Positions 8,816-36,686 are shown, counted from the first letter of the stretch. The stretch: 64,000 nt of DNA from Flavobacteriales bacterium (GCA_013359255.1 JABWCF010000015.1:26-64025); one strand, 5' to 3'. Translations and numbers: made by a program. Notes: a model not told the origin generated them from the sequence alone.

Positions 8816-8879
8816 CTTATCTATACTAAAAAGTAAGGATTGGGGAATGTTTATGGCGAGTATAGGTAAGTTACCACCA
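8816..8879 (+). other. left anchor of the cassette array (target half-site, crossover G8870|TT)
   Basis: GTTACCACCA at 8870 is the reverse complement of TGGTGGTAAC at 13423. An 11/12 inverted repeat (8816-8827 / 8859-8870) ends at the crossover G. Confidence 0.7.
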
Positions 8880-9094
8880 ATGGTATTAAAGACAGTGCAA
8901 AATGACTAACATTGGACACAATGTAACGGACAATTCAGTAATGAAACTTACGAGCAGACATAGTAACGGGCGACACGCAAGCCGACCAAAACAAGATTTA
9001 ATATTTGCTCCACCGCACGACAAAAAAATAAAAAAAGAAAAGGGACAACCCCCGCTAAATTTTTTGTCAGGGTTTTTGTGCCCCGCTTCGTTTA

Positions 9095-9178
9095 GCACAT
9101 TTGCAAGTCGTGCATTTTTGTTTTTAGGAAAATTTAAAAACAAAAAGTGCACGCCCTTCGGGAAATTTGCAAAAGAGC
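9095..9178. repeat. CACATT...AAAGAG hairpin motif (X1, leader of cassette 1)
   Basis: GCACATTTGC...GCAAAAGAGC with an inner TGCA...TGCA stem. Confidence 0.6.
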
Positions 9179-9383
9179 TGAACTCCACCCGCAAAACAAA
9201 AACACCCGCCAAAAAATTTTCCTTCGCTCCTACTTCGTGGAATGTTTTGTGCCTATTAATAAATCAAACCACTCTTTATTTCAATGACTCCTAATAAATC
9301 GATTAAGGATTTAGCAAAATATATATCCTTTTATTGAAACATAAAATCAACTTCAAATTCACATTTTAAAAATTTAAAATACA

Positions 9384-12275
9384 ATGAAAACAAAAATAAT
9401 AACAGCATTTGTCGCCATAATTTTTGTTACAAATATTATGGCTCAGAGTTCATATGTAAAAGTGAACTGTAATAATTTTGAGCTAAATGGTATCCCATTT
9501 CAACCATTAGTTTGTAATTATTTGACTCAATTCACTAAAGATTATAACAATAATACTTATTACTTATCTCCAAATTGGAATTATAGTGATAACTGGGGAT
9601 ATCCAAATACAGGAGGCCCCGGTAGATTTATTTATAGTTCAACAGATGATAAAGGAGTAAGTATAACAAAAGTTGGGAAAGATATGGCAAGAATAAAAAA
9701 TATGGGATTTAATACAATTCGGGTATTTGTTCAACCTGATAATAATAATGGGGTACTTGAAGTTCCTACAGGTTCTTATACTTCATACTTTTCAATTATA
9801 GATCAATTACTTGATTCGGCAAATACATATGATTTAAAAGTGATACTTGTTGTTGGTCCAAAAAAATCATGGGAAATACACGCGAGCTTTAAATCCTACT
9901 TAGAAATAATTTCAAACCATTTTAAGAATAACTCGACTATTTTGGGTTATGATTTATATAATGAGCCTTTTAATGATTATAGCCACAACAATGTAAATGA
10001 TAAATATAAAATTTCAAATTGGGTTTCTGAATGGTGCCACACAATAAGAAAACATGACATCAATCACTTAATAACCATTGGTCTTACTCATCCAGAAAAT
10101 TCAATAGCTTGGGATCCGCTAGTGATGCCAATTGACTTCGTCTCGTTTCATTTCTATGCATGGACAGAAAATTTACAAACCTCAAAAGATAGAATACAAG
10201 CTTATTTATACTGGGCTTCTCGAACAATTAAAATGCCTTGGATTATTGGAGAGATTGGATATAGTGGTACGAATACTTTTATAATTGACCCAGATGCTTT
10301 GGTTGGATCAGAAAATGACCAAGCAAATTTCGCTACTACAACCATGCAGAAATCTCTTGATTGTAATTGCCAAGGATATTCATGGTGGCAATATCAAGAA
10401 ATTAACTGGCAAAACCCTTGGGAGGATTATTTAGGTCTAATAAATAATTATGGTCCTAGTGGATTTGCAAATGAAACAAATAAACAAGCAGCAAGTGTTT
10501 TTTCTTCATATTCGTCAATGTCTGGAAATGCAAGTAATTGTACGAAACCATCGAATTATTACAATATTTATAATTATTCAAACATAGACTTAACGGGACG
10601 AGTGCTTGATAATTGGGGCATACCTGTTAAAAACGCTGTTATTATTGGTTGGAAAAATGTAAATGGTAATTGGCCATATTATATTACATATTCTGATGAT
10701 AATGGCTACTTTATATTGCGTTCAAATACTCCTGGCTATAATATACAAACATTATGGATATCGCTTCCTGGCTATTCTACTGTAAAGGCATCTAATCCAA
10801 TTTCCGGATTAAATTACTCTATAAAACCTATAAACTTTAATCGATGGACGAAAAAATGGACTAATGATGCAAACAATAAAATAGATGGCTGGTATGTTTT
10901 AGACACAGATCAATTTTTCTTTGCTGATTTTGATGGAAACGGGCAAGACGAATTGCTTTGTACTCAAAATAAAAATACGGGGAATAATTATATGACGATG
11001 TTATATTACAACAATTCCTCAGCTGATTGGGATTGGGGTTGGAGCAATTCTGGTAATGGGTGGATTGGCCCTTGGTACAAAAGAAATATAGATAGATTTT
11101 TTACTGGAGATTTTAACGGAGATGGGAAGTCGGACTTGTTATGTATGCAAGTTACAAATAACAATACTGATTGGTGGTCATTATTAAAGTTTAACAACAA
11201 TCAATGGAGTTATTTAACGAACAATTCTTATAATTCAGGAAGTGATTGGATTGGCTCTTGGCAAATACGCTCAATTGATGAGTTTTATGTTGGGGATTTT
11301 AATGGAGATGGTAAAGATGACTTATTTTGTATTCAAAAAACAAACAATAATACCGACTGGTTTAGTATACTAACTTTTAATCCCGTATCTGGCCTTTGGG
11401 ACTATCTTTATATTAATGGAATACCTATCACAAATTATGGTAGTGATTGGTTCGGGAGCTGGAAAATCAATTCTATTGATAAATATTATGTGGGGGATTT
11501 TAATGGAGACGGCAGAAGCGAGATTTTATGCACTCAATATACAGGTGGTTCAAATGATTGGATGGCTTTAAATAAACTTAATCTTTCAAATGGCACTTTT
11601 CAAAGGATTTGGTGTAATTGCGATAATGGAATACTTTATGATGATGGAATATATCCTTACAGGAATAAGTTAATAGTAGGAAATTTTGATGATGATTCAA
11701 AAGACGAAATTTTAGGTATACATACATGGGGTACAAAGTTCGATTTTGAATCAAATGATTTCCAATGGTCTTGGAGTACTGGAAATGGAGGTATATTTTC
11801 AGACTGGCAAGTATCTCCATCAGGTGAGAAATATTTTTTCACTAAAACTTACAAATATTCGCCCGAACAATTGATGTCCTTTAAGAAAATTGGATCAAAT
11901 TATCTTATAAATATGTATTCTTTTAATAAGGTAATAGAGTGCTCAACTCTTAGGAAGTTTAATCATACAGATTACCCGAATAACTCTGAAATTAATATCA
12001 TTAATGATGTTGATACTATACTGAATGTTTTTCCAAATCCTACAAATGGGAAAATATATATATCATTTGATTCAGATTCGAATTCTGGTACATTAATAAC
12101 CATAATCAATAATAAAGGAGAAATAGTTAGGAAAACATATCTCGATTATAAATCATCTATTGATAATATTGAGATTGATATTGATATGAAGGATTTATCA
12201 GAAGGAATGTATTTTATTAAGGTAATAAATGGTAAATTTGCTGCCTCTAAAAAGATTATTTATTTAAAAAAATAA
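9384..12275 (+). CDS. T9SS-secreted clan GH-A (GH5/GH2-like) glycoside hydrolase with FG-GAP/VCBS repeats
   Basis: Signal peptide; YDLYNEP acid/base and IIGEIG nucleophile motifs; repeated GDFNGDGxxD; C-terminal VFPNP...GMYFIKV T9SS domain. Confidence 0.8.
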   Translation: MKTKIITAFVAIIFVTNIMAQSSYVKVNCNNFELNGIPFQPLVCNYLTQFTKDYNNNTYYLSPNWNYSDNWGYPNTGGPGRFIYSSTDDKGVSITKVGKDMARIKNMGFNTIRVFVQPDNNNGVLEVPTGSYTSYFSIIDQLLDSANTYDLKVILVVGPKKSWEIHASFKSYLEIISNHFKNNSTILGYDLYNEPFNDYSHNNVNDKYKISNWVSEWCHTIRKHDINHLITIGLTHPENSIAWDPLVMPIDFVSFHFYAWTENLQTSKDRIQAYLYWASRTIKMPWIIGEIGYSGTNTFIIDPDALVGSENDQANFATTTMQKSLDCNCQGYSWWQYQEINWQNPWEDYLGLINNYGPSGFANETNKQAASVFSSYSSMSGNASNCTKPSNYYNIYNYSNIDLTGRVLDNWGIPVKNAVIIGWKNVNGNWPYYITYSDDNGYFILRSNTPGYNIQTLWISLPGYSTVKASNPISGLNYSIKPINFNRWTKKWTNDANNKIDGWYVLDTDQFFFADFDGNGQDELLCTQNKNTGNNYMTMLYYNNSSADWDWGWSNSGNGWIGPWYKRNIDRFFTGDFNGDGKSDLLCMQVTNNNTDWWSLLKFNNNQWSYLTNNSYNSGSDWIGSWQIRSIDEFYVGDFNGDGKDDLFCIQKTNNNTDWFSILTFNPVSGLWDYLYINGIPITNYGSDWFGSWKINSIDKYYVGDFNGDGRSEILCTQYTGGSNDWMALNKLNLSNGTFQRIWCNCDNGILYDDGIYPYRNKLIVGNFDDDSKDEILGIHTWGTKFDFESNDFQWSWSTGNGGIFSDWQVSPSGEKYFFTKTYKYSPEQLMSFKKIGSNYLINMYSFNKVIECSTLRKFNHTDYPNNSEINIINDVDTILNVFPNPTNGKIYISFDSDSNSGTLITIINNKGEIVRKTYLDYKSSIDNIEIDIDMKDLSEGMYFIKVINGKFAASKKIIYLKK

Positions 12276-12278
12276 AGC

Positions 12279-13139
12279 ATGGCTGGTTCCTTTAAAACAT
12301 TGCTAAAGTTTCTGATGCCAAAATATCAAAAACTCATTTTAGAATATAAAGTTGAATTTAAGCCAAGGTATGGGTATGGGTTAAAGCCCCATACCCTACT
12401 TTATGAACTTATAAATAAAAATAGATTTGTTTATATACATTTTCTTAAAAAAATTTTGACACATGAAAATATTTTTCAAGCAATAAAATCATTCGAGTTT
12501 GAAAAAAATGAAAATGAACCTACATGGAACAACGGTTTTCTGCCAGGGCTGGATATAGTATCTTTATATACTATTTTGGCTCATTATAAGCCAAGCAAAT
12601 ACATCGAAATTGGTTCAGGTAATTCTACTAAAGTAGCAAGAAAAAGTATTATAGAAAATAAATTAAACACAAAAGTTGTTTCAATAGATCCTTTTCCCAG
12701 AGCTAATATTGATCATTTGGCGGATGAAGTTATAAGACAACCTCTCGAAGATATAAAAGATTATCAATTTATTATTAGTGAATTAAAAGAAAACGATATT
12801 TTATTCATTGATAATTCACATAGATGTTTACCAAATTCAGATGTTACAGTTTGTTTTTTAGAGTTATTGCCTTATCTTAAAAAAGGGGTAATTGTTCATG
12901 TTCATGATATTTATTTGCCTTATGATTATCCTCAATTTATGTGCGACAGGTTTTATTCTGAACAATATGTTTTAGCGGCTTATATTTTAGCAAATCCTGA
13001 AAAATACAAACCAATATTTCCAGGTATGTTTATTAGTGAAGACAAAGAACTATCAGATATTATTTCGTCAATATGGGAACATTCTAATACAAGGGGTGTA
13101 GAAAAACATGGAGGTTCATTTTGGATACAGATTAATTAG
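12279..13139 (+). CDS. class I SAM-dependent methyltransferase (Methyltransf_24-like)
   Basis: YIEIGSGNST SAM motif; FIDNSH; VHVHDI. Confidence 0.8.
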   Translation: MAGSFKTLLKFLMPKYQKLILEYKVEFKPRYGYGLKPHTLLYELINKNRFVYIHFLKKILTHENIFQAIKSFEFEKNENEPTWNNGFLPGLDIVSLYTILAHYKPSKYIEIGSGNSTKVARKSIIENKLNTKVVSIDPFPRANIDHLADEVIRQPLEDIKDYQFIISELKENDILFIDNSHRCLPNSDVTVCFLELLPYLKKGVIVHVHDIYLPYDYPQFMCDRFYSEQYVLAAYILANPEKYKPIFPGMFISEDKELSDIISSIWEHSNTRGVEKHGGSFWIQIN

Positions 13140-13195
13140 ATTAAATATCAAACCCTCACTTTTTTTGTCATACTTTTTGTGCCGACACACTTTTA

Positions 13196-13233
13196 GCACA
13201 TTGCCGTCCTCGTTCCTGCGTGTGGCAAAGAGC
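13196..13233. repeat. CACATT...AAAGAG hairpin motif (X2, trailer of cassette 1)
   Basis: GCACATTGCC...GGCAAAGAGC. Confidence 0.6.
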
Positions 13234-13422
13234 TAAAGACAACCCTATAACAAAAAGATATGCCAAAAAGCAAACGCTCTTTGAAAAAATTCCTCGCTTC
13301 GAAAAAGTTAAATCTTTTCGACCGCTCATTGCCAACAGACAAAAAAGTGTTTCGACAAGGCAAAAAGCGAACAATAAAAACTATAAAAACACTATGAATA
13401 TAGCATTGCGGGACAGAACCAC

Positions 13423-13555
13423 TGGTGGTAACAGCACCTACCCAAAATTGGCGGTACAGTTGTTAAATCAAGCTATGTGCTTCAAAGTTTGTGCTTGGTT
13501 GACAGTGAAGTGCTTCAAAATCGCCACCTTCGGGTAGCTGCAAACCGTTGGCAGC
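13423..13555 (+). repeat. attC-like site B
   Basis: TGGTGGTAAC-A-GCACCTACCC...GGGTAGCTGC-AAACC-GTTGGCAGC. Confidence 0.85.
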
Positions 13556-13750
13556 AAGTGTATTAAGACAGACACGACAAACAAACGAGTGACAGAAACA
13601 GAAAAAAGTAAACCATTTTGACAGGTGACCAAAAACATAGAAACGATATTACAAACGGACAAGGAGTAAGCCGACACTCATTGCCAACCCTATATTTTTT
13701 ATTTTTTTCCCACCCGGATTTTTTAAAAACAAATTTAAGCCAGCACGCAA

Positions 13751-13812
13751 GTGGCACATTTGGCTTTGCCCCTACCCGCAAAGCCGACCCTTCGCAAAGC
13801 CAAAAGAGCCAC
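13751..13812. repeat. CACATT...AAAGAG hairpin motif (X3, leader of cassette 2)
   Basis: GTGGCACATTTGGCTTTGC...GCAAAGCCAAAAGAGCCAC. Confidence 0.65.
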
Positions 13813-13858
13813 TTATTATCAACGCTGATTTGTAAACAAAATTTACTTTATTGAATAT

Positions 13859-16687
13859 ATGATGAAGTATCTAGAATGGAATAATATCATATCGGCTTAT
13901 TTTTTCAATCCTGACAATGCAGGAAAGGATATTCATTTGTATCTAACCAAGAATGATATTATTGGTTTAGCGAGGCAAAATTTCAACGAAGAAACAGAAG
14001 ACGAAATTTGGACTGATTTTATCAATTCTATTAAACGAGGCATTCCGGGCTCAAACGGAAATGTGATTACAAAGGCAAAACACGCTCATTCCAAAAACAA
14101 TCTTATCGGCTTAAAAAAATCGGACGGAACATTTGCCACAATAGACGATGTTCCGGTATTATATCCACCTTACATTTCTTATTTGACTTTCTTAGTGCTA
14201 CCGTTAATTGAAAGTATTGATAACACTAATCTAAGAGCAAACAACTATTACGGCAGGCTTAATACTTTTTTACAAAGTAATCAAATAAATGAGAACATAG
14301 GAACAACCGATTTTAGCAACAATCAAATAAATAGTTTGTGGGAAGATTTGGCGAATTGGGCTAATATCAAAAAAAATGGTGATTTAGGTTTATTTAATGT
14401 AGTTCCCTTTTCAAATGCAAATTGGGTTTATGTTGGTAAAGTTTTTTCGCAATGTGTTTTACCGCCAAAATTTTTGAATCGTTTACCGGAACTATTTGAT
14501 TCTATTGGTTTAGTGCCGAACACGTTTTACGATGACAAGTTTTTACAAGATAAAATCAAAAACAGTAGAACAGATTTAATTCCGAAAAGCACGTTAGATT
14601 TTTTGAAAAAAGATGATGAGTTATCCAATTCAATTATTCAAACAATCCAACGTCAATACAAAAAATGGTCAGGCGAAACACACGAAGAAATTGAAGAAGG
14701 AACAAAAAAGAAAAGAAATTACACCGTTGCCCCCTTGTTTCTTCAATTTAAAGTAAACACAAACGATGAAGTTATTTCGTTCTCTTACAGAATGTATTCT
14801 TCAAATGATTATCCTGAAGATTTGAAATTTGGCGAACACGAAAACTTGTATGAAATCAACGGTTGGTCTAAAACACTACCCCTTGAATTTAACGAAGGAC
14901 TTGAACTGAAAGATAATTTCAACAAATGGATTGCAAAATTTCCAAATCGTGATGTGAGATTATTTGTAAGTGCAGGAACATTTCAGTTGAGTAATGATTT
15001 TTGGATTGAAACGGACTTTCTTTCAAAAACAGAACGAATGTATTTGCTATGCAAAAATGACAAACAAGAACTAATCAGAGATTGGGGTAAAACATTTAGC
15101 AACGGAAATTTTAAACAGGAAGATTTTGACGGCTTACCTGAAAACTATTCTTTGTTTTGGTTTCGTAACCCAACACAAGGTCTTACCGAAATTCCACTTC
15201 TTACACTCTATACCGAAAAACGAATTGAATTAGTTGGTGGTTTAAAAGTAAATTTCAGAACCTACTCAAATGACTTTTTACCGGAAGTTGAAATTGTAAA
15301 TTCAGACGGAAACGAAAAAGTGTATTTGCAATACAAAGACACAGACGAAAAAATATTTCTTTCTAAAAAGACATCGCTCAACAACCGTTGGCTATTGAGC
15401 GAAAAAACGGCAATAAATGCCGATTTTTATATTAAAGTTGAGGACGAAACTTTTTCAGGAAATGCACTTGTATACAATCTTGTTTCTTCTGACAATGCCG
15501 CTATCAAAGTTGATGAATCCAAATTGCCCAAAAGAGATTCCTTTGGAAGAAAAATCACAACTGATATGGAACAATATTGTTTAGGCAGCAATATCATAAA
15601 CCCAAACATTCAACGACAAGTCCCTTACACACATTTATTCCGTTCCATAAACACAGATACAGCCACACAAATAACAACAGCAATATTTAATCACCATTGC
15701 GGAAATAGACTTTGCGATTTTCTTTCATTAAAAGGCGTATTGACTACTGAAGAATTTTTCAGAGCATTTGAGTTTTACTATTCAAAAGAATTTACTGAAC
15801 AGCTGGTAAGTTCAAATTTCAATCTTACAAAATTGAAAAGAGCATCTTTAAATTTTTATGATTTTATCGGAATTCTTGATTATGATTATGAAACCAAAAA
15901 TATTGTGTTGAATCCTCCTCAATTAATCTACATACCTACAACAAAAGGAAGAAAAGTTTTGCTGATTGGTGCAAGAGATTCCGCATTGATTGAAACAATC
16001 ATAAAAACTGCACCAAAACACAATTTACAAGCAGAAATAACTAAACAATTTTCTTCCAATGAAAGATTGCTTTTACCCGATGTTATTACTTTAAAAGCAT
16101 TTCAACAATCTTCTGACAACTTTGGTGAAAAAAGCTTAGTAGCATTTGCAGATGAATTGCAGATAAAATTCAATGACAATAGCCTACCTCAAGTCGCATT
16201 CCTGAATTTTTCGGCAAGCATCACAGAATATGAGAGCTTATTACAACTTACAGATGAAAATGATTACGATTGGGCAAGATATAGTTTCAATCCTGAAACT
16301 TTAATGTTTGAGAAATGCGAGGAAAATTCAATTGATAAATCATTTTCATTACTTCAATACAAATTAAATGAATACACATACCAACACAAGCTATGGAAGC
16401 ATGGTAATTGTTATCAAATTGATATAAATTGGGGTAAATTTATTGCTTTAAAGCATTTTCAAAAAAACGTAATCTTGTTTGATCAAGCAAATAATAAAGT
16501 TGCTATACCCATAGAGCTTCCTTTACCAAGATTACTCGCAGAATCAATTATGTTGTTAAGTGGGTTTGCCCCTGACTTCAAAGTGATTGAAGATAAGAAA
16601 TATAGAATTTACGAAAATATCCCAAGTATTTTTACAACTAATTTATTCAGTAGGTTAGGTCAAACACCGATAAATACAACATTATGA
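13859..16687 (+). CDS. large hypothetical protein; putative Druantia partner (DruH-like)
   Basis: 942 aa with no recognisable catalytic motif; stop overlaps the start of a DruE-like helicase. The partner role is inferred from position and size. Confidence 0.55.
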   Translation: MMKYLEWNNIISAYFFNPDNAGKDIHLYLTKNDIIGLARQNFNEETEDEIWTDFINSIKRGIPGSNGNVITKAKHAHSKNNLIGLKKSDGTFATIDDVPVLYPPYISYLTFLVLPLIESIDNTNLRANNYYGRLNTFLQSNQINENIGTTDFSNNQINSLWEDLANWANIKKNGDLGLFNVVPFSNANWVYVGKVFSQCVLPPKFLNRLPELFDSIGLVPNTFYDDKFLQDKIKNSRTDLIPKSTLDFLKKDDELSNSIIQTIQRQYKKWSGETHEEIEEGTKKKRNYTVAPLFLQFKVNTNDEVISFSYRMYSSNDYPEDLKFGEHENLYEINGWSKTLPLEFNEGLELKDNFNKWIAKFPNRDVRLFVSAGTFQLSNDFWIETDFLSKTERMYLLCKNDKQELIRDWGKTFSNGNFKQEDFDGLPENYSLFWFRNPTQGLTEIPLLTLYTEKRIELVGGLKVNFRTYSNDFLPEVEIVNSDGNEKVYLQYKDTDEKIFLSKKTSLNNRWLLSEKTAINADFYIKVEDETFSGNALVYNLVSSDNAAIKVDESKLPKRDSFGRKITTDMEQYCLGSNIINPNIQRQVPYTHLFRSINTDTATQITTAIFNHHCGNRLCDFLSLKGVLTTEEFFRAFEFYYSKEFTEQLVSSNFNLTKLKRASLNFYDFIGILDYDYETKNIVLNPPQLIYIPTTKGRKVLLIGARDSALIETIIKTAPKHNLQAEITKQFSSNERLLLPDVITLKAFQQSSDNFGEKSLVAFADELQIKFNDNSLPQVAFLNFSASITEYESLLQLTDENDYDWARYSFNPETLMFEKCEENSIDKSFSLLQYKLNEYTYQHKLWKHGNCYQIDINWGKFIALKHFQKNVILFDQANNKVAIPIELPLPRLLAESIMLLSGFAPDFKVIEDKKYRIYENIPSIFTTNLFSRLGQTPINTTL

Positions 16688-24897: not shown

Positions 24898-24909
24898 ATC
24901 CCTCAATAT

Positions 24910-24977
24910 TTTGCAAGCACATTGCCGAAGCTCCACAACCCTAGCACAGACCAAAGCTTTGTCAAAGAGCTTGCAAA
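24910..24977. repeat. CACATT...AAAGAG hairpin motif (X4, trailer of cassette 2)
   Basis: TTGCAAGCACATTG...CAAAGAGCTTGCAA. Confidence 0.65.
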
Positions 24978-25136
24978 GCCAACGCAAGAAAAATTGTTTT
25001 TAAAAAATGTCCCGACCCATCAAAAAATAAAAAACGCTATGCACAACCCGACTCAGATAGACAAAAAAGCAAACGGACAATGACACTGAAACTCAACACT
25101 GACAATGGTTTACAAAGACGAACAGACAGTACACCA

Positions 25137-25272
25137 GCTGCCAACAGCCGTTTTGCAAAAGCGGGGTTTTCGTGCTTATATGACAGTGAAGTGCTAAATT
25201 CAAGCTTTGTGCATCTAATGAAGTTTAGTGCTGAAAATCCCCGCCTTCGCAAAGCGGCAAAACGTTACCGCC
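25137..25272 (+). repeat. attC-like site C
   Basis: GCTGCCAAC-A-GCCGTTTTGCAAAAGCGGGG...CCCCGCCTTCGCAAAGCGGC-AAAAC-GTTACCGCC. Confidence 0.88.
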
Positions 25273-25334
25273 AATGCTAAAAAAACAACGACAGTGAACA
25301 AAATGAACGACAGAGATAAAATGCCGACCGCACA

Positions 25335-25395
25335 TTCAAGCACATTTGGTTTTTACCGACACGCAAAGCCAAACCAAAAACCAAAAGAGCTTGAA
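25335..25395. repeat. CACATT...AAAGAG hairpin motif (X5, leader of cassette 3)
   Basis: TTCAAGCACATTTGGTTTTT...AAAAACCAAAAGAGCTTGAA. Confidence 0.65.
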
Positions 25396-25422
25396 TTTTG
25401 CCAACACGCAGACATAAAAATA

Positions 25423-25430
25423 TAAATTTG
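25423..25430 (+). promoter_or_regulatory. Bacteroidota -7 box inside cassette 3
   Basis: TAAATTTG ends 4 nt before the ATG at 25435. Confidence 0.45.
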
Positions 25431-25434
25431 AAGA

Positions 25435-28421: not shown

Positions 28422-28424
28422 GGT

Positions 28425-29759
28425 ATGTCATACAACAAAACAGGAAACAGGCCATTTGAATTTGCTAGTAAGAGCAACCATATTCATATTATCAAAGACC
28501 CAGAAGTTCAGAAGTTTTTAAGCCAACACGAACTTCCCAAAGAGGGTGATGAAATTTCTCTATTTGACCATTATTTGGTGGATATAAATTATGATGTTGC
28601 AGATTCTGTAGAATTCATTATAGCAGTAGATGGAGGTGATACAACAGTTCCAGTCAAATCAAAATTCCCTTCTTCAACAATAACCTTTTTTCAGTTTGGG
28701 GCTAACTTATTGAAAATTTCAGACCTTAAAGAATTGAGGGAGCAACCTTTCATTTCTCCACAATCAATCTCAAAACTAAAAGAATTACAGCGGATAAAAT
28801 TTACCTTACCGACCAAGAACATTGGCTTAATTGATGAAAATGGTAAACGAGCAACACTGACTTATTCTGTCAGAAAAGCCCTTTATGAATTTTTCAAACA
28901 ACACGATTTCCTATCAACTTTGAAATGGTTTCTTTTTGAAGAGTACAAGAAAAATCCAAAGTCGGAAAGAGAACTTGCAAGCCACCCAAATAATTCTGCT
29001 ACAAAGAAAGTGGTTATTCAAAGAGATAAAATCAATTCCGAATATAAAATACCACACGCAGACGGTGATTTGTTTTTGACAGATATTTTTAGGCTTCACG
29101 AAGTAGTGGATGAAGATTTAGGTGCAGGAGGTATTGTTGGCTATTTAAGAAATTTGATTGAACATTTCATTCTGATTGACACCATTAGAGGATTGTATAG
29201 AGTTAAGAAAGATACCTTAAAAGAGGTGTTATTTGTAAAAGATGGCCCATTAGGTTTCTTTGGACAAACTGCGAATATGCACGAGCCTATGAGAGAATTG
29301 TTGAATCACCTTAATTCTGAATTAAATATCTTTTTAGCAGGAATAGAAAAATCAGGTCCTTTTGTAGAGCACGCATTGGAAATTAAAGATAAAATTAAGC
29401 AAGGACAGGCGTATTTACTTTCAAACAAGCACATTTACAAGTATATAAAGCCGGGTGACTCTGACAATCCAGAAGCGTATGGACGTTCCTCATATTATGG
29501 CAGCAAAGTAATTTTTAAGTCCAGAGATGAAAGAATTTACGTGGTGACTATTCCTACTGAGAAAAGTGAAGTAGTTCTTAATCCTATCAAGTCGGACTTC
29601 AAGCACATTGACATCATAATGAAATACATTGAACGACTAAAAAGTGATATGTATGATAATTCTCTTTTACCGATTGCACTTGCAAACAAACTTGTTTCAC
29701 TTTCAGACCATCCAAGCTCTGTTTTACTTGAAAAGTTTGCTAAACACAATATAAAGTAG
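28425..29759 (+). CDS. nurA: NurA-family nuclease
   Basis: IAVDGG, VKDGPL, GIEKSG motifs; directly downstream of HerA. Confidence 0.75.
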   Translation: MSYNKTGNRPFEFASKSNHIHIIKDPEVQKFLSQHELPKEGDEISLFDHYLVDINYDVADSVEFIIAVDGGDTTVPVKSKFPSSTITFFQFGANLLKISDLKELREQPFISPQSISKLKELQRIKFTLPTKNIGLIDENGKRATLTYSVRKALYEFFKQHDFLSTLKWFLFEEYKKNPKSERELASHPNNSATKKVVIQRDKINSEYKIPHADGDLFLTDIFRLHEVVDEDLGAGGIVGYLRNLIEHFILIDTIRGLYRVKKDTLKEVLFVKDGPLGFFGQTANMHEPMRELLNHLNSELNIFLAGIEKSGPFVEHALEIKDKIKQGQAYLLSNKHIYKYIKPGDSDNPEAYGRSSYYGSKVIFKSRDERIYVVTIPTEKSEVVLNPIKSDFKHIDIIMKYIERLKSDMYDNSLLPIALANKLVSLSDHPSSVLLEKFAKHNIK

Positions 29760-29787
29760 ATTATGAAAATGCTAATGCTTCACAGCC

Positions 29788-29844
29788 ACACACATTGCCA
29801 AGTCGCTCAAGCCGACACGCAAGCCAAAACTTGGCAAAGAGTGT
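29788..29844. repeat. CACATT...AAAGAG hairpin motif (X6, trailer of cassette 3)
   Basis: ACACACATTGCCAAGT...ACTTGGCAAAGAGTGT. Confidence 0.65.
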
Positions 29845-29897
29845 GTCTGTCCAACTGCGCAACCGACAGACAAACGGACGAAGAAAAAGAAGCACTA

Positions 29898-30035
29898 GGC
29901 GGTAACATCACCTATACGCAAGCAGGGGTTTCGTGCTTCGTAGGACAGGTAAGTGCCAAATTTGAAGTTCAGTTCTTCGTAGGAAGTTCAGTGGTTAAAA
30001 TCCCTGCCTGCGTATAGCTGAATCCCGTTGTGCGT
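29898..30035 (+). repeat. attC-like site D
   Basis: GGCGGTAAC-A-TCACCTATACGCAAGCAGGG...CCCTGCCTGCGTATAGCTGA-ATCCC-GTTGTGCGT. Confidence 0.88.
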
Positions 30036-30091
30036 CAGTGTAAAAGCGACAACCCGACAAGTAAAAACGAATGACAAAACATATTAATTGA

Positions 30092-31771
30092 ATGACCGAA
30101 CACGAAAAATTTAAAAAACTTCTAGAATACTTTGTGACCCATCTTGAATGGCTCATAAATAACGATACAAATAATCGTGGTTACAATTTATACCTAAAAC
30201 CACTAATTGATAAAAATGAATTTTACTCTACTGGACAGGGTTACAATAACGGAAACATACAAAAACATATTGCTGAATGGTGTCACTATGAGAATGGCGA
30301 CATATTTATTAACATTCAGTCGAATTATGGAAATTACAAGACTGTTAAATGTTATTTAAACTGGGCTGACACAGGATTGAATGTTATCGCTCGTTGGAAT
30401 GACAACAAAATTAATTCACTTGCTTTAGAAGAGTATCAATTTTGGCTTAAACCAACAAAAAGAATTGATTTAGGAATCAATAAGTCAATAACAGAACTTG
30501 GTCTCTTTGACAATAATACACCGAATGAGAGTTTAAAAGATTTCTTCAATCAGTTCGAAAAGTTAATCATTGATTGGAACATAAAAGAACAAAATGAAGC
30601 TCAAATGAAAAAAATTCAACCATACTTAGATTTGCTTAAATCATCCAAAAACATAATCCTTACAGGTGCTCCTGGAACGGGTAAAACATTTTTAGCGAAA
30701 CTAATTGCAAGACAACTGATTGGAGTAAAAACCGATGACGAATTAGAAGAAAGTGGACAATTTAATTTTGTACAATTCCATCCTTCTTATGACTACACAG
30801 ACTTTGTTGAAGGACTGAGACCGACTCCACCTGATGAAAACGGAATAATCGGTTTTGAGATAAAAGACGGAATTTTTAAATCATTTTGCCAAAAGGCATC
30901 TGAGGCAAATTTTTCAGAAATAGTAGACAATTTTGATGTGGCTTGGGAAAATCTTTTGTCTGCGATTAGAAACAATATAGGACAAGGAAATTTAACCAAT
31001 ATCGGTTCTTGGGATTATGGTCTATCATCAAAAGACTCATTGAAATACACATCAGTTGATACACCCTCACAATATAATTTTACAATAACGAAAAAAAATG
31101 TTTACGATGCCTATCAAGGTAAGAAAGCAAGACCCTCCGGTGCTTTTCAAAAGGATATGGAAGATGTCGTAAATTATTTGAAAGCACATTTCAATTTAGT
31201 CGATTTTGTGGCAGGACAGGAAAATTCAACAAATGGATTAAAATACTTTGTTTTTGTCATTGACGAAATTAATAGAGGTGAAATCTCAAAAATATTTGGA
31301 GAATTATTCTTTTCGATTGACCCAAGTTATAGAGGTAAAAAAGGTGCAGTTAAAACTCAATATTCTAATTTACATAATGATGAAAAAGAGGTTTTTTATG
31401 TACCCGAAAATGTTTACATAATCGGCTCAATGAATGACATCGACAGGAGTGTTGAAAGTTTTGATTTTGCAATGCGAAGACGTTTTACTTGGATTGAGAT
31501 TACAGCAGAACAAAGTGCCGATAATATGAATTTGCCACAAGACATTAAAGAAAGAATGTTGAGGTTAAACAAGCAAATTTCTGAAACAGAAGGTCTTAAT
31601 CCTTCTTACCACATTGGCGCAGCTTACTTCTTAGATTCAAATGGTAATGCAAGACAAGACATTGACAACATTTGGAATTTACGAATCGAGCCACTTCTGA
31701 AAGAGTATTTGAGAGGAATGCCTGACAGCATTGATAAAATTGAACTTTTGAAAAATGCCTTTACAGCCTGA
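30092..31771 (+). CDS. mcrB: McrB-family AAA+ GTPase
   Basis: GAPGTGKT, FHPSYDYTDFVEG, IDEINRG, MNDID (NxxD), DFAMRRRF. Confidence 0.9.
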   Translation: MTEHEKFKKLLEYFVTHLEWLINNDTNNRGYNLYLKPLIDKNEFYSTGQGYNNGNIQKHIAEWCHYENGDIFINIQSNYGNYKTVKCYLNWADTGLNVIARWNDNKINSLALEEYQFWLKPTKRIDLGINKSITELGLFDNNTPNESLKDFFNQFEKLIIDWNIKEQNEAQMKKIQPYLDLLKSSKNIILTGAPGTGKTFLAKLIARQLIGVKTDDELEESGQFNFVQFHPSYDYTDFVEGLRPTPPDENGIIGFEIKDGIFKSFCQKASEANFSEIVDNFDVAWENLLSAIRNNIGQGNLTNIGSWDYGLSSKDSLKYTSVDTPSQYNFTITKKNVYDAYQGKKARPSGAFQKDMEDVVNYLKAHFNLVDFVAGQENSTNGLKYFVFVIDEINRGEISKIFGELFFSIDPSYRGKKGAVKTQYSNLHNDEKEVFYVPENVYIIGSMNDIDRSVESFDFAMRRRFTWIEITAEQSADNMNLPQDIKERMLRLNKQISETEGLNPSYHIGAAYFLDSNGNARQDIDNIWNLRIEPLLKEYLRGMPDSIDKIELLKNAFTA

Positions 31772-33090
31772 TGAGAACAACCGACAATAATGGCGGAAAA
31801 AGTATTGATAAATCCGACAATTTAAACATTGCCGATTTATCAGAAATAGCAAATAGAAACCTTTTGGATTTACAAATAGAAAATCCTGATTTGCTTGTTT
31901 TTCCTCATTCATTTGGTAAATATCAAGACGATGTTGAAAAACCTCATATTTTCTCACTAGACAGTGAAAACCTGACAACATACAATCTAATGGGTTTTAT
32001 TGGCCGAAATTCAACACAACTTACAATTTCATCACGCTTTGCCAAAGATGAAAACAACGATTATTTTTTGCATTATATGTTGCAAAAAGTCTTTTCGATT
32101 AACCTTTTAAAATTTGACCAAACACCCAATAAAGAGAACATTTGGGATTTTCTTCTTTACCTTTTTCCGTACTATCTCAAAAAAGCTTATTCTCAAGGAA
32201 TCTACAAAGCATACAAAAAGGAGGAATACAATGACACTAACGTCAAGGGAAGTATTGATGTTAAACGCCATATTCTTAGAAACATTCCGTTTACAGGAAA
32301 AATAGCATATACTACAAGAGAGCACAGCTATGATAATAATTTAACACAACTAATTAGACATACAATTGAGTTCATCAGAAACCACCCTTATGGCAGTGGA
32401 GTACTAACGGGTGACAGCGAACTAAGAGACATTGTGAGTAAATTTATTTTTGTAACTAATAAGACCTACAATGGTAATTCGAGACAAAAGATTATTACAG
32501 CCAATTTAAAACCAGTTACTCATCCTTATTTTACGGAGTATTCTGCGTTGCAGAAAATTTGTTTAAAAATTCTTCGTCACGAGAAAATTACATTTGGCAA
32601 AGAAAAAGATAAAGTTTACGGATTGTTGTTTGATGGTGCTTGGCTTTGGGAAGAGTACCTTAATATCATTCTAAAAGAAAACTTCATTCATCCAGAAAAC
32701 AAAACAGGGAAACATCGACAATACCTATTTGAAAACAATATACAATCAATATTTCCTGATTTCATCAGCAAACTTGAACCAAAATCTGTCGGGGATGCAA
32801 AGTATATTCCACTTGACAGACAACAATCATATTCAGAAAATTCCGAAAAGGCAACAAGCATTTACTACAAGACAATTGCTTATATGTACAGGTTTAGTTC
32901 AAAAAATGGTTTTTTAATCTTCCCAAGACAAGACACGAGCTTTTTTGAAACATACCGCATAAAAGAGACAGACGGAACACTAAATAAAATTGGACTTGCA
33001 ATTCCACAGACAACAGAAAACTTTAAAGATTATATAAAAACAATGAACTTTAATGAAGAAGAATTGAGACAACATTTAATGACAAACTAA
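31771..33090 (+). CDS. mcrC: McrC-family nuclease subunit
   Basis: Coupled to McrB; LWEEY, PDF...DAKY PD-(D/E)XK motif. Confidence 0.85.
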   Translation: MRTTDNNGGKSIDKSDNLNIADLSEIANRNLLDLQIENPDLLVFPHSFGKYQDDVEKPHIFSLDSENLTTYNLMGFIGRNSTQLTISSRFAKDENNDYFLHYMLQKVFSINLLKFDQTPNKENIWDFLLYLFPYYLKKAYSQGIYKAYKKEEYNDTNVKGSIDVKRHILRNIPFTGKIAYTTREHSYDNNLTQLIRHTIEFIRNHPYGSGVLTGDSELRDIVSKFIFVTNKTYNGNSRQKIITANLKPVTHPYFTEYSALQKICLKILRHEKITFGKEKDKVYGLLFDGAWLWEEYLNIILKENFIHPENKTGKHRQYLFENNIQSIFPDFISKLEPKSVGDAKYIPLDRQQSYSENSEKATSIYYKTIAYMYRFSSKNGFLIFPRQDTSFFETYRIKETDGTLNKIGLAIPQTTENFKDYIKTMNFNEEELRQHLMTN

Positions 33091-33097
33091 ACACCGA

Positions 33098-33234
33098 ACG
33101 CACAACAGGCGTTTGGCTCAATGGCGGTTGAAGTGGTTAATTGAACATTCTACCTCGTATCAACTTTTGTGGTGTATTGACAGTTTTGTGCTCCGAAATC
33201 CGCCACTGCGCCAAGCGCCAAAACGTTATGTGAT
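33098..33234 (+). repeat. attC-like site E
   Basis: ACGCACAAC-A-GGCGTTTGGC...TGGCGG...CCGCCA...GCCAAGCGCC-AAAAC-GTTATGTGAT. Confidence 0.88.
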
Positions 33235-34309
33235 ATAATAAAAAGACGACCAACAAAAGATGATAGACATAATTGGAGACATTCACGGACACGCAGACAA
33301 ACTCGAAGAGTTGCTTTTAAAGTTAGGTTATACAAAAAATAACGGGACATATTTACATCCAGACAGAAAAGTGTTGTTTGTTGGAGACTATATTGACAGG
33401 GGACCAAAAATCAGAGAAACACTTCAAATAGTAAGAGCAATGGTGGACAGTGAAAATGCCATTGCAATAATGGGAAATCACGAATACAATGCACTATGTT
33501 TTCATTTCCAAGAAACCGAAGGCGGACACCTCAGAAAACATTTAATCAAAAATATTATTCAACATTACGAGACGCTCAAACAATTTCAAAATAGACAGAA
33601 GGAATATGAAGACTATTTGGACTGGTTTAAGACATTACCACTTTACTACGAAACCGACACTTTCAAAGCTGTTCACGCCTGTTGGGATAACAAAAACATT
33701 GAATATTTAAGAAACATTTTAGTAAATGACAGACTTACTGACGAACTTATTTATCAATCAGTTAAGAAAGGAACGGAATTAAATGAAGCAATAGACCAAA
33801 CACTTAAAGGCAAAGAAATGAAAATGCCGGAGGGGCTTTACTTTACTGACAAAGACGGAACAAAAAGAACTGAAATAAGAATAAAGTGGTGGGAAGACCC
33901 AGCAACTATGACTTACAAATCTATTAGTGTTGAACCAATCGATAATTTACCAGAGAAACCAATTGAATTATCAGAATTAAAATCGCTTGACTTTTACAGA
34001 GACAATGATAAAAAAGTATTCTTTGGACACTATTGGCTTAAAGGAGAACCTTCCCTATACAAGGAAAATATTTGTTGTTTAGATTACAGCATTGCAAAAG
34101 GTGGAAAACTTGTTGCTTACCGATTAAATGGAGAGACAGAATTAAACAGTAAAAATCTAACTTATGTCTAAAAGAATTACATCACATAACAGCCGTTTTG
34201 CGTCAGGCGGGGTGACGTGCAAACTTGAAGGTTTGTGCTCCTATTTAGCTTTGGTGCAGGTTGACAGCTTAGTGCTTCTATGCCCGCCCGACCGCAAAGC
34301 CGCAAACCG
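33226..34309 (+). mobile_element. cassette 5 (1084 bp): metallophosphoesterase
   Basis: Starts G|TTATGTGAT and is closed by ATCACATAAC at 34181 (10/10 complement). Confidence 0.82.
33260..34171 (+). CDS. calcineurin-like metallophosphoesterase (PPP/ApaH-like)
   Basis: GDIHG, GDYIDRG, GNHE, HAC, FGHYW, CLD motifs. Confidence 0.9.
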   Translation: MIDIIGDIHGHADKLEELLLKLGYTKNNGTYLHPDRKVLFVGDYIDRGPKIRETLQIVRAMVDSENAIAIMGNHEYNALCFHFQETEGGHLRKHLIKNIIQHYETLKQFQNRQKEYEDYLDWFKTLPLYYETDTFKAVHACWDNKNIEYLRNILVNDRLTDELIYQSVKKGTELNEAIDQTLKGKEMKMPEGLYFTDKDGTKRTEIRIKWWEDPATMTYKSISVEPIDNLPEKPIELSELKSLDFYRDNDKKVFFGHYWLKGEPSLYKENICCLDYSIAKGGKLVAYRLNGETELNSKNLTYV

Positions 34310-34311
34310 AT
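34181..34311 (+). repeat. attC-like site F
   Basis: ATCACATAAC-A-GCCGTTTTGCGTCAGGCGGG...CCCGCCCGACCGCAAAGCCGC-AAACC-G|AT. Confidence 0.85.
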
Positions 34312-34485
34312 AGAACGCAACCCTTACTCCAGAAAAGCAGACCCTCCCACCGGTCGGGATCTCTTCTCCACAACGCTTCGTTGCGTTCTATCGGTCAGGG
34401 CTTCTCGTTCCGAATATCCGCAACCCTGCGGGATGCGTCTATCAATGGCTTATCGCCATTGAAACGGAACGACAAGCCCGGACCG
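34310..34485 (+). mobile_element. cassette 6 (176 bp): ORF-less mini-cassette with G|AT core and a distinct palindromic site
   Basis: GATAGAACGCAAC (34309) complements GTTGCGTTCTATC (34380); CGGTCAGGGCTTCTCGTTCCG pairs with CGGAACGACAAGCCCGGACCG (19/21). Confidence 0.7.
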
Positions 34486-34686
34486 TTAGCGGTAATTATT
34501 ATTGACAGTTATTGCTATTATGTTAAGGCATCCCATAACGACAAAAAATGAGAAAAATAATATCCCGTTTATAAGGACATTAAAATCCAACTTTATCAGA
34601 GCGACTAAACCAAAAACAATAACTGCAATGACATAAGAAATACCAAGCCACTTCCAATCAATAGATTTTACAATATTTTGTATCAT
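34486..34686 (-). CDS. small membrane protein
   Basis: 66 aa with two hydrophobic helices; start overlaps the Fic stop; its TAA stop is the complement of the TTA of the cassette core. Confidence 0.55.
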   Translation of the reverse strand: MIQNIVKSIDWKWLGISYVIAVIVFGLVALIKLDFNVLINGILFFSFFVVMGCLNIIAITVNNNYR

Positions 34687-35477
34687 TTTATAGACTCTTT
34701 AAGTGCTTCGGGCAACATCAATAAAAACGGTAAACATCTATCCCAATAAAGGGCATAGTAATTATATCCCAATGCAATGTTTTGATAATAATCAGGACGG
34801 TTATCCCAATAATATTTTTCAGAATTTATAGACCAAGCCGACAAACCAAGTTTAGACACCAAAAACCATTTTTCAAGCAAACGTGCAGACCGACCATTAC
34901 CATCCATAAATGGGTGAATTTTTGCAGTCCACAAATGAATCATTGAAGCATAGTAAAAAACCTCTTTGTAAGACAAATCCCTTTTCAATAATTCTGATAT
35001 ATCATTAAACAATTTGCTTAATTCTTCATTTACAAACTGTGGTTCGACAGCCAAATAAACAGGTCTAAGTGTTTTTGAATCCCTCACTCCCACTTGCTCT
35101 TTTCTGACTTTTCCACGTAAATTGACAGGCAAAAGTGTTTTGGATAGTATTTCATGAATCTTAAGAAAATTGGTTTTATTAAGGTTGTTTTCAGAGGCAA
35201 ACTTGTATGCTTTTACTAAATCTTCAATCTCTTGCACTTCTTTTTTCTTTGGAAAACTTTTATTTCCTCTGTTTCTAAAAAAGCTGTTAGCATCAAGAGT
35301 GTTACCCTCAATTTTAGACGAGTAAAGCGAAGAAGCTATCAGATAATATTCAAAATCATCAGTTGTAAATGTTGACTTTGACCTTAATTTATGGAATACC
35401 TCTAACCAATCAATTTTGCACTTTGACGAGTATTTATCAAGGTATTCGGGCGATATAAATTTCAAGTGTTTTCCCAT
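34683..35477 (-). CDS. Fic family protein (class II, N-terminal inhibitory helix)
   Basis: HPFMDGNGRSAR canonical Fic motif; SSKIEG matches (S/T)xxxE(G/N). Confidence 0.9.
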   Translation of the reverse strand: MGKHLKFISPEYLDKYSSKCKIDWLEVFHKLRSKSTFTTDDFEYYLIASSLYSSKIEGNTLDANSFFRNRGNKSFPKKKEVQEIEDLVKAYKFASENNLNKTNFLKIHEILSKTLLPVNLRGKVRKEQVGVRDSKTLRPVYLAVEPQFVNEELSKLFNDISELLKRDLSYKEVFYYASMIHLWTAKIHPFMDGNGRSARLLEKWFLVSKLGLSAWSINSEKYYWDNRPDYYQNIALGYNYYALYWDRCLPFLLMLPEALKESIK

Positions 35478-35481
35478 AGGA

Positions 35482-35489
35482 CAAATTTA
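35482..35489 (-). promoter_or_regulatory. Bacteroidota -7 box for the inverted Fic cassette
   Basis: TAAATTTG on the minus strand, 4 nt before the Fic start. Confidence 0.45.
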
Positions 35490-35510
35490 CTATTTTTGAG
35501 TATATATAAC

Positions 35511-35647
35511 TACCGCTAACATCGGTTTTGCGTCAGGCGGGGTGACGGGCTTCTATTGACAATTTTGTGTATAATTGAAGTGCGGTTCTTCGTATCAAGC
35601 GTAGTGCTAAAAAGCCCGCCCGAACGCAAAGCCGAAAAACGTTATAC
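35511..35647 (+). repeat. attC-like site G
   Basis: TACCGCTAAC-A-TCGGTTTTGCGTCAGGCGGG...CCCGCCCGAACGCAAAGCCGA-AAAAC-GTTATAC. Confidence 0.88.
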
Positions 35648-35680
35648 CTCACCTTATGACATAACACCAAATCTAACAAC

Positions 35681-35887
35681 ATGAAAGTTAACAAAAAAGA
35701 AATAGCAAAATTTTTCGCAGGACTAACTGCTTGGGAAGCTATTGTTCATTTATCATTATCAACTTGTAATATGTTGCCAATTACTTGGTGCAATTTCACC
35801 CTGACAAGCACTTTAAACACAATACAAATAATAGTTCCAGGTGCAATTTCAATATTATTGACCTGGTATGCTTGGTTTAAAAAATAA
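35681..35887 (+). CDS. small membrane protein
   Basis: 68 aa with two predicted TM segments, starting just after the cassette core. Confidence 0.6.
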   Translation: MKVNKKEIAKFFAGLTAWEAIVHLSLSTCNMLPITWCNFTLTSTLNTIQIIVPGAISILLTWYAWFKK

Positions 35888-35891
35888 TATA

Positions 35892-36521
35892 ATGGAAAAT
35901 TTTGACCGTAAAAAACACTGGGAAAATATCTATCAGACTAAAGAACTGAAAGAGGTAAGTTGGTTTCAACCTACACCCGAAACTTCATTGGACTTCTTTA
36001 AACAATTCAACGTGCCTACAACTGCAAAAGTGATTGACATTGGCGGTGGTGATAGTTTTTTAGTTGATCATTTACTCGACTTGGGTTATCAAGACATTTC
36101 TGTTCTCGACATTTCAGCGGCTGCCATTGACAGAGCAAAACAACGACTTGGAGAAAGAGCAAAAAATGTAAAATGGATAGTTGCAGATGCTGCGACTTTT
36201 CAGCCGACAGAGAAATATGACTTTTGGCATGACCGTGCAGCATTTCACTTTTTGACAGACGAACAAGAAATTTCAAACTATATCGACACTGCACAAAAAA
36301 GTATCAAGCCAACAGGAGTTTTGGTAATCGGGACATTTTCGGAACAAGGACCAAAAAAATGTAGTGGAATAGAAATAAAACAATACTCGGAAACGACAAT
36401 GACCGACCGAATGAAAAAGTTTTTTGAGAAAATTAAGTGCATTACGGTTGACCACAAAACACCCTTTGACACTATTCAGAATTTTGTTTTTTGCAGTTTC
36501 AGAAAATTACAAACGGATTGA
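35892..36521 (+). CDS. class I SAM-dependent methyltransferase
   Basis: IDIGGGDS, DISAAAI, WHDRAAFHFL; ATG at 35892 is the likelier start. Confidence 0.88.
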   Translation: MENFDRKKHWENIYQTKELKEVSWFQPTPETSLDFFKQFNVPTTAKVIDIGGGDSFLVDHLLDLGYQDISVLDISAAAIDRAKQRLGERAKNVKWIVADAATFQPTEKYDFWHDRAAFHFLTDEQEISNYIDTAQKSIKPTGVLVIGTFSEQGPKKCSGIEIKQYSETTMTDRMKKFFEKIKCITVDHKTPFDTIQNFVFCSFRKLQTD

Positions 36522-36545
36522 CACGACACGAGAAAATAGAAGGGC

Positions 36546-36686
36546 ATCCGCTAACAAGGGCTTTGTGTCAGACCTGGTAACGTGCAAACTCAGAGTTTTG
36601 CGCTTCTATCTAAGTTTATGCTTAGTTGACAGTTTTGTGTGCTTCTAAATTGCCCTCCTTTTGGTAGCTGAAAACCGTTACCAACA
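36546..36686 (+). repeat. degenerate/chimeric attC-like site H
   Basis: CCGCTAAC...AAAACC-GTTACCAAC with the conserved loop. The left arm resembles sites F/G and the right arm resembles site B, so they do not form the long stem. Confidence 0.65.

Follow-up and report, generated by a model that had tools for sequence, protein, structure and literature searches.

Introduction

In integron biology, the additional domain of the integrase IntI, which lies as an insert between patches II and III and binds extrahelical attC bases, is held to be what permits the recombination of folded attC sites, and the Bacteroidota are held to be nearly integron-free. The integrase gene of Treponema-type integrons is co-oriented with the cassettes. 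Here, we analyze a 28-kb array of gene blocks (positions 8870–36686) in a 64,000-nt stretch of DNA from a Flavobacteriales bacterium; this whole stretch is referred to as the window, and positions are counted along it unless a contig or locus is named. In all probability, what we see is a secondary cassette array, with no recombinase beside it, that belongs to an integron-like gene capture system of Bacteroidota; this system is common in the phylum and barely described so far.

The closest prior description is that of the recombinase-associated acquired interbacterial defence clusters (rAID-1) of gut Bacteroidales (Ross et al. 2019, 10.1101/471110). As presented there, rAID-1 clusters occur in 226 of 423 Bacteroidales genomes and contain "repetitive intergenic sequences reminiscent of integrons", and active gene acquisition is suggested. 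They are defined through their cargo, type VI secretion system (T6SS) immunity genes, and through recombinase identity: a XerD-like recombinase at the 5′ end, with 44% or higher identity to Bacteroides fragilis BF9343_RS08045, is followed by at least two co-directional low-GC genes. Close homologues of the recombinase are stated to be restricted to Bacteroidales, and the portion of the account available to us gives no site structure, crossover point or attI. Our literature search for an integron-like system of Bacteroidota turned up only rAID-1. For integrons proper, defence cargo has been described by Darracq et al. 2024 (10.1101/2024.07.02.601686), who refer to Bacteroidota as "previously found without any integrons", and the IntegronFinder 2.0 survey lists Bacteroidetes with only In0 and one Salinibacter integron (10.1101/2022.02.28.482270).

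Results

Sites and cassettes of the array

The array is partitioned by eight hairpin sites into eight cassettes. Seven of the sites (type-1) are homologous AAC...GTT hairpins of 134–141 nt that can be aligned to one another and share an invariant AAC and an invariant GTT. A covariance model made from these sites, R1, returned exactly seven type-1 sites in the window, all on the + strand and scoring 104–125 bits; with filters off, the next score between 7500 and 40000 was 15 bits only, and no decayed type-1 sites were detected within the large cassettes. The remaining site (34380–34494, type-2) is a tighter hairpin of 105 nt with GAT/ATC cores. The original prediction, which was made from the sequence alone, had each block ending in an AAC...GTT palindrome of ~130 bp; this is borne out for the seven homologous sites and not for the eighth, which is a different hairpin. 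The sites are intergenic and G+C-rich, and they lie at the ends of gene blocks. The cassettes, with their closing sites, are:

8870–13547, + strand: cassette 1, a small open reading frame (ORF), a 963-aa FG-GAP protein with a type IX secretion system (T9SS) sorting tail, and a methyltransferase (Pfam); closed by site 1 (13423–13556, R1 117.5 bits); the start GTTACCACCA is complementary to TGGTGGTAAC
13547–25264, + strand: cassette 2 (11.7 kb), a Druantia-type defence system (PADLOC); closed by site 2 (25136–25273); self-match of 9 nt
25264–30027, + strand: cassette 3, an N4/N6 DNA methylase, a HerA-type ATPase and a 444-aa unknown protein (Pfam, PADLOC); closed by site 3 (29897–30036)
30027–33225, + strand: cassette 4, a McrB-like AAA ATPase and McrC (Pfam AAA_5; McrBC, E 8e-50); closed by site 4 (33097–33234); self-match of 9 nt
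33225–34309, + strand: cassette 5, a calcineurin-like metallophosphoesterase (Pfam Metallophos); closed by site 5 (34181–34318), whose right core is G|AT; self-match of 10 nt
34309–34485, + strand: cassette 6, an ORF-less mini-cassette; closed by the type-2 site (34380–34494, GAT/ATC cores); folding energy after rejoining of −49 to −51 kcal/mol
34485–35641, + strand: cassette 7, a Fic/DOC-domain protein encoded on the minus strand at 34683–35477 (Pfam Fic); closed by site 7 (35511–35650)
35641–36677, + strand: cassette 8, an S-adenosylmethionine-dependent methyltransferase (Pfam); closed by site 8 (36546–36686)

For seven of the eight cassettes, the first 9–13 bases are complementary to the left core of the cassette's own closing site, and the seven core pairs quoted in the original prediction (8870/13423, 13547/25137, 25264/29898, 30027/33098, 33225/34181, 34309/34380 and 34485/35511) were all confirmed at these coordinates. 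Rejoining cassette start and site as they would be joined in a circle yields an R box that is a perfect 9–13-bp stem, cassette 8 being the exception, as the original prediction implied by listing seven pairs; the R stem is only 3–4 bp in the array form, and the rejoined fold is better by 5–15 kcal/mol when each site is given its own cassette start. This self-match pattern is far above chance. When starts were compared with the left core of the next site for all consecutive sites in this genome and in the relatives that we fetched, a perfect complement of at least 9 nt (9–10 nt) was present in 50 of 58 cognate pairs versus 54 of 5912 non-cognate pairs.

An alignment of 90 sites from 23 sources supports the folded structure: 90.5% of stem cells are paired versus 28–39% when the partners are slid, and double changes, found in 15 of the 19 stem pairs, amount to 382 cells versus 36–78 in the slid controls, a count that is biased towards structure because the stem alignment was fitted to the model. 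The sites are folded imperfect palindromes with inverse cores, and AAC and GTT are kept in 88 of 89 of them. Conservation of the cores is limited to YAAC/GTTR, and the 6–7 nt that follow are private to each cassette; the site spacer is asymmetric (1 nt versus 5 nt) and the loop is partly conserved. A family link suggested alongside the original prediction, to Flavo-1 of Rfam, did not materialize: covariance scanning gave no gathering-threshold Rfam match in the window, and none to Flavo-1 at E ≤ 10 between 8000 and 38000.

Turnover of the locus and re-use of cassettes

The same locus was located in a congener (G001), where it is bounded by a CLC channel gene and a short-chain dehydrogenase (SDR) gene on the left and by AraC and YceI genes on the right, with flanks that are 88–94% identical to ours. 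In the window, the flanks and the end of the array are:

7986–8753, + strand: upstream flank, SDR gene (Pfam adh_short, E 9e-54); 94% identical and syntenic in G001
36687–36820, + strand: array tail, which contains no site; homology to the congener starts again at 36821
36907–38377, + strand: downstream flank, AraC-family regulator and YceI-like protein (Pfam); 88–90% identical and syntenic in G001

Between these flanks lie 28 kb in the window versus 5.2 kb in G001, and the cassette content at the locus differs completely: in the G001 segment, a single intact site is accompanied by a T9SS protein with a beta-lactamase fold and by a restriction-modification set of the Dam type. Homology to the left flank stops at 8872, in the GTT of the first crossover, and resumes on the right at 36821; since the 134 nt that follow the last site are not the same in the two congeners, the array boundary lies past the last G|TT. 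Two of our cassettes recur elsewhere in G001. Cassette 3 is present on contig C128 (91% identical), within another array and beside other neighbours, and a copy of cassette 7 (Fic) on contig C34 (88% identical) stands behind a different site. In both instances, the identity starts at G|TT. This comparison with a congener, akin to the strain comparison that had been named as a check on the original prediction, lends comparative support to the cassettes being mobile.

A side observation at the G001 locus (L020, 8400–8440) concerns the site of the first cassette, whose hairpin body is deleted (...CTGCCACAAC|GCAAAGCCCGAAAAC|GTT) so that two cassettes are fused; multi-gene cassettes may form through site decay of this kind.

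The ~125-nt bodies of the sites were compared across genomes. Bodies that are 92–99% identical occur in different orders, for example in Algoriphagus and in the relatives G001 and G027, and the following bodies belong to a group that is 97–99% identical:

L075:13849–13987 (Algoriphagus ornithinivorans)
L022:1703–1841 (G001)
L007:117–255 (G027)
L092:18168–18306 (Flavobacterium aciduliphilum)
L019:5047–5185

For several body pairs, a left-hand AAC and a right-hand GTT mark the exact limits of the identity, and the sequences beyond them are unrelated on either side. Among the pairs of highest similarity, the left core moves with the body, which is the classical integron expectation. The G001 copy of cassette 3 has kept its start and its 12-nt left core and differs in the bodies on both sides, and behind the Fic cassette, G001 has a chimeric site that combines two body types. 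Near-identical bodies in different orders suggest recent inter-order traffic, with a body that would be exchangeable on both sides; either exchange takes place at the left core too, or bodies are swapped by some other process. A candidate instance of orthologous cassettes with different private ends (L007/L022) was set aside, as only ~210 nt and the site are shared, and we make no claim from it.

Cargo of the arrays

The original prediction described the array as a defence island, which agrees with our annotation: cassettes 2–4, carrying Druantia, methylase-HerA and McrBC, account for 19.7 of 27.8 kb (71% of the array length). The genes of cassette 2 encode a DruF/DruL-like protein of 942 aa, a 2007-aa DruE, a DruK nuclease and a DruM m5C methylase, with PADLOC scores of 1925 bits for DruE2 over its full length, 242 for DruF, 165 for DruL, 87 for DruK and 507 for DruM. 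Cargo of other arrays in the genome includes a type III restriction-modification system and helicases and nucleases with DpdF-, MkoA- and DrmC-like matches. Orphan immunity genes of the rAID-1 type were not among the window cargo found, with no search aimed at immunity families.

Three side observations concern the cargo and the smallest cassettes. The FG-GAP/T9SS gene of cassette 1 contains three tandem-like copies of a 111-nt unit, spaced at 186–201 nt (11046–11543), which are probably protein repeats. Another small hairpin family (..CACATTTGG..AAAAGAGCCACTT) has members close to the start of the cassette 2 cargo (13749–13814) and immediately beyond the array (36837–36869). At least three of the genome's arrays contain the ORF-less mini-cassette (34309–34494 in the window, C2:13195–13473 and C26:1–99/C17:1–112); it is interrupted by the ends of contigs C26 and C17, which are probably joined there.

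A dedicated recombinase encoded outside the window

The genome comprises 2.92 Mb in 34 contigs at 36% G+C. The window's contig, C19, encodes no tyrosine recombinase, which upholds the predicted absence of an integrase; Pfam PF00589 matches were confined to contigs C31, C20 and C8. Among the five tyrosine recombinases of the genome, one belongs to the family that adjoins arrays in relatives. This Xer/IntI-like protein of 382 aa is encoded at C31:213–1358, 210 nt from the contig start, and possesses a Phage_int_SAM_4 (CB) domain and a Phage_integrase domain; its catalytic residues are intact and all invariant. Two further genes are Xer-like (C31:106374–107225 and C20:25807–26604).

None of the genome's proteins is a canonical IntI above the integron-integrase cut-off. 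The C31 recombinase scores below the IntI models TIGR02249 (205.8 bits, cut-off 265) and NF011946 (122.5, cut-off 435), and passes NF040815, a "tyrosine recombinase/integron integrase" (XerA) model, at 225.8 versus 220. It could be aligned to XerA and, with the alignment split into two parts, to IntI4 (2a3v); residues 186–242 of 2a3v, where the IntI insert lies, are opposite only ~13 residues of the query, and the TIGR02249 match covers model positions 2–184 and 235–314 with ~9 aa between them. IntI4 (2a3v) and XerA are likewise the best PDB folds for a predicted structure of the protein. The first ~77 residues are modelled as a separate, extra N-terminal domain with a predicted beta-beta-alpha-beta-beta-alpha-beta order and a pLDDT of ~90 (residues 1–70). 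Its top PDB match, the HARP domain of SMARCAL1 (4o66), is non-significant (E 0.075, TM 0.42), and Pfam HARP was matched weakly by 2 of 25 family members (best E 0.03).

Orthologues in relatives, at 41–94% identity, immediately precede arrays and share their orientation; in relative G035, for instance, the recombinase heads at least 12 cassettes of 0.5–1 kb. Scanning GTDB representative genomes provided 80 recombinase loci (956 kb) from Flavobacterium (including F. psychrophilum DSM 3660), Chitinophaga, Algoriphagus, Pseudopedobacter, Bacteroidales and one Ignavibacteria metagenome-assembled genome (MAG). R1 found 79 sites in these loci, every one of them downstream of the recombinase gene and on its strand (79/79 for each), and none in the 10-kb upstream flanks. 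Based on this architecture in other genomes, we infer that the C31 protein is the acting enzyme. A recombinase encoded elsewhere had been predicted, and to that extent the expectation is sustained by a dedicated tyrosine recombinase on C31 with orthologues next to arrays; it is not a canonical IntI.

attI-like boxes at the array starts

The relatives also carry a conserved attI-like box 3′ of the recombinase gene, ..TTTATGGCGGGTATAaAC(T/A)A|GTT (..TATGGCGGGTATAxAC(T/A)A|GTT), with a related box ~45 nt further 5′. Locating the first crossover through the complement of the first site's left core in 37 loci placed it close to the gene in ~25 of them, mostly 95–108 nt past the recombinase end (range 71–169). 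As with the attI of integrons, the box is adjacent to the recombinase gene and heads the array, but it lies 3′ of a co-oriented gene rather than 5′ of a divergent one. The box that follows the recombinase in our genome reads ...AATCGGGCATAAACAA|GTTAGTGGC; no partner core for a first cassette past the C31 recombinase was found. The same box stands at the start of the window array:

8816–8872, + strand: orphan attI-like anchor, CTTATCTATAC ... GTTTATGGCGAGTATAGGTAA|GTT, with the crossover G at 8870 (box match; homology to G001 stops at 8872)

With an orphan box at its start, the window array is not anchorless, and on sequence grounds it is anchored at an orphan docking site. Every array of the genome with a locatable head begins at such a box (C19, which is the window, C2, C18, C16 and C26), giving at least five docking boxes in one genome for a single dedicated recombinase. 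On C26, the mini-cassette directly follows the box (..GCGGCAATCAACAA|GAT).

Distribution of sites and recombinases

Covariance-model scanning, which had been proposed with the original prediction, recovered R1 sites in the window, in the rest of the genome and in relatives. Our genome contains 30 of them in six arrays, on contigs C19, C2, C18, C16, C9 and C12; 30 of 41 near relatives from 17 families have them, as do 74 of 201 genomes (47 of 109 genera) sampled across the phylum at E ≤ 1e-8.

Some observations concern contig structure. Recombinase genes of the family very often lie 100–300 nt from a contig end (C31:1–212 and, among many other loci, L030, L033, L040, L045, L058, L060 and L076), which fits assembly breaks in repeated sites; such platforms would then be easily missed in draft genomes. 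Contig overlaps were checked for a way to place the recombinase beside an array, and the only one was between the end of C28 and C19, near window positions 1–25; at 95 nt it indicates that these contigs are probably adjacent. C9 terminates within a site, and C31 begins 210 nt past the recombinase stop codon. The MAG labelled Ignavibacteria (L049, JAUXVN010000106.1), a group outside Bacteroidota, has a recombinase that is 58% identical to ours, followed by an attI box at +104 and further on by an R1 site, and represents either a wider distribution in the Fibrobacteres–Chlorobi–Bacteroidetes (FCB) group or a binning error.

Discussion

A model for cassette capture

Taken together, a model for the array emerges. 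Each cassette comprises 0.2–11.7 kb of cargo that begins with TT and a ~6–7-nt private sequence and closes with this private sequence's reverse complement and AAC, followed by a ~125-nt body that folds into a long imperfect hairpin and finishes in G. In a circularized cassette, the private ends would pair into a 9–10-bp R box above the hairpin; for cassette 4, the predicted circle junction is ...GCGCCAAAAC-G|TTGTGCGTCAG. The C31 recombinase would act in trans, cutting at G|TT of folded sites, and the DNA is presumably recombined as a folded single strand. Cassettes would be inserted and excised at the attI-like box (..TATGGCGxGTATAxxxAA|GTT), and the outcome would be a strain-variable island that stocks whole defence systems: Druantia, methylase-HerA and McrBC.

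Several observations weigh against this model. Cassette 8 and seven other pairs among the 58 violate the self-match rule; the start of cassette 8, GTTATACCTC, and the left core of its site, ...CCGCTAAC, share a complementary run of only 4 nt, and no partner cores for cassette 8 or site 8 were found anywhere in the genome. The folding strand is ambiguous, with energies favouring the bottom strand and G-T wobble counts the top strand, and some sites are decayed or chimeric. The C31 recombinase is without the IntI additional domain, which is considered necessary for the recognition of folded attC. Finally, 8 of 30 site-bearing relatives have no member of the recombinase family and 5 of 11 site-free relatives have one, numbers that include several incomplete genomes and that come from a model derived from a single genome; the phyletic co-occurrence of site and recombinase is positive but weak, and we therefore rely on their adjacency instead.

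Could the array be a fossil, recombined as cassettes in the past and now a static defence island? The lack of a recombinase in the window, the failure of cassette 8 to obey the rule, the deleted and chimeric site bodies in the congener and the 3–4-bp R stem of the array form would all fit. Nevertheless, seven of eight cassettes have kept perfect 9–13-nt complements and full-scoring sites, an intact recombinase with all catalytic residues invariant is retained, the content is wholly different from that of a congener whose flanks are 88–94% identical, and site bodies shared with other orders at 97–99% identity indicate recent traffic. We regard a fossil as unlikely, and the array is probably still active, to judge by these comparisons.

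An ordinary integron fragment, that is, a cluster of attC sites lacking an integron-integrase (CALIN), would have normal attC sites and a recombinase that is merely a divergent IntI. The AAC/GTT cores, the folded site and the R′/R″ relation do follow attC logic, the CB domain matches Phage_int_SAM_4, the best fold is IntI4 and NF040815 is passed. Set against this, the IntI-specific insert is missing and TIGR02249 and NF011946 stay under their cut-offs; the gene is co-oriented with the cassettes, with attI 3′ of it and an extra N-terminal domain; the cores conserve only YAAC/GTTR rather than RYYYAAC; and the IntegronFinder 2.0 survey reports almost no Bacteroidetes integrons, yet the sites occur in 74 of 201 genomes. 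We consider this explanation very unlikely. Movement of the cassettes by housekeeping XerC/D (in the manner of integrative mobile elements exploiting Xer, IMEX) or by another recombinase is more improbable still: the genome does have two Xer-like genes, and the dedicated family is missing at E < 1e-30 from some genomes that bear sites, but the dedicated gene has all 79 sites on its downstream side and in its own orientation, its stop codon is followed at a fixed distance by a conserved docking box, and no comparable link to Xer genes was seen. That the repeats are structural intergenic elements with no recombination role, akin to repetitive extragenic palindromes (REP), miniature inverted-repeat transposable elements (MITE) or terminators, is scarcely credible. 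Intergenic G+C-rich hairpins at the ends of gene blocks are what such elements look like, but a separate private complement for each cassette is not expected of terminators, and neither the exact synteny break at G|TT, the re-use of whole cassettes in other arrays nor the strict strand and position link to the recombinase would follow from them; shuffled controls, moreover, do not reproduce the self-match rule.

With the window array taken as a secondary cassette array of an integron-like system, a bolder reading is possible, although we hold it to be rather doubtful: a phylum-wide integron lineage without the IntI additional domain, in which the recombinase acts in trans on dispersed attI, exchange takes place at AA|C as well as G|TT, the body is exchangeable and defence cassettes pass between orders. 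If two-sided exchange were true, the heritable unit would be the cargo together with the inverted ends private to it, the 125-nt body would be a free module, and multi-gene defence systems would move between orders as single cassettes.

Implications and comparison with known systems

The system appears to combine full cassette logic with a recombinase that lacks the additional domain, and its sites occur in about a third of the sampled genomes of the phylum. It provides a natural test for the IntI parts that are truly needed, and possibly a glimpse of what integrons were like before they had the IntI insert. Complete defence systems, such as the 11.7-kb Druantia, are carried as what would be single mobile units, which suggests a mechanism for the turnover of Bacteroidota defence islands. 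The sharp two-sided boundaries of the bodies may bear on how cassettes are made.

The present analysis also supplies a molecular grammar that can be applied to rAID-1 in the human gut. The likeness to these clusters is drawn from their description and from the Bacteroidales homologues of the C31 recombinase (43–58% identity), which have the same sites and attI box. Our array differs from rAID-1 in its flavobacterial host, in the absence of an adjoining recombinase and in its anti-phage cargo; the rAID-1 architecture is present in relatives of this genome and not in the window. Archaeal integrons (Ghaly et al. 2022, PMC9668308) offer another parallel by description, as they too extended integrons to a group thought to be free of them, with tandem cassettes and folding attC; they were found with standard integron tools, which report almost no integrons in Bacteroidetes.

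Sedentary chromosomal integrons and CALINs, those of the Treponema type above all, resemble the array system in their unidirectional arrays, folded AAC...GTT sites, G|TT crossover and cassette starts complementary to their own left core, in having one docking site beside a recombinase of the Xer/IntI fold, and in their integrase-less secondary arrays and defence cargo. With at least two sites and no integrase nearby, the window would itself qualify as a CALIN if its sites count as attC equivalents. The array system departs from them in its recombinase, which lacks the additional domain and has gained a ~77-aa N-terminal domain, and from integrons in its attI, which lies ~100 nt 3′ of the gene, and in the several attI-like anchors per genome. 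Its cores comprise only YAAC/GTTR and a private 6–7 nt, with a 1-nt/5-nt spacer and a partly conserved loop; its cassettes are often multi-gene and reach up to 11.7 kb, and its site bodies behave as exchangeable modules.

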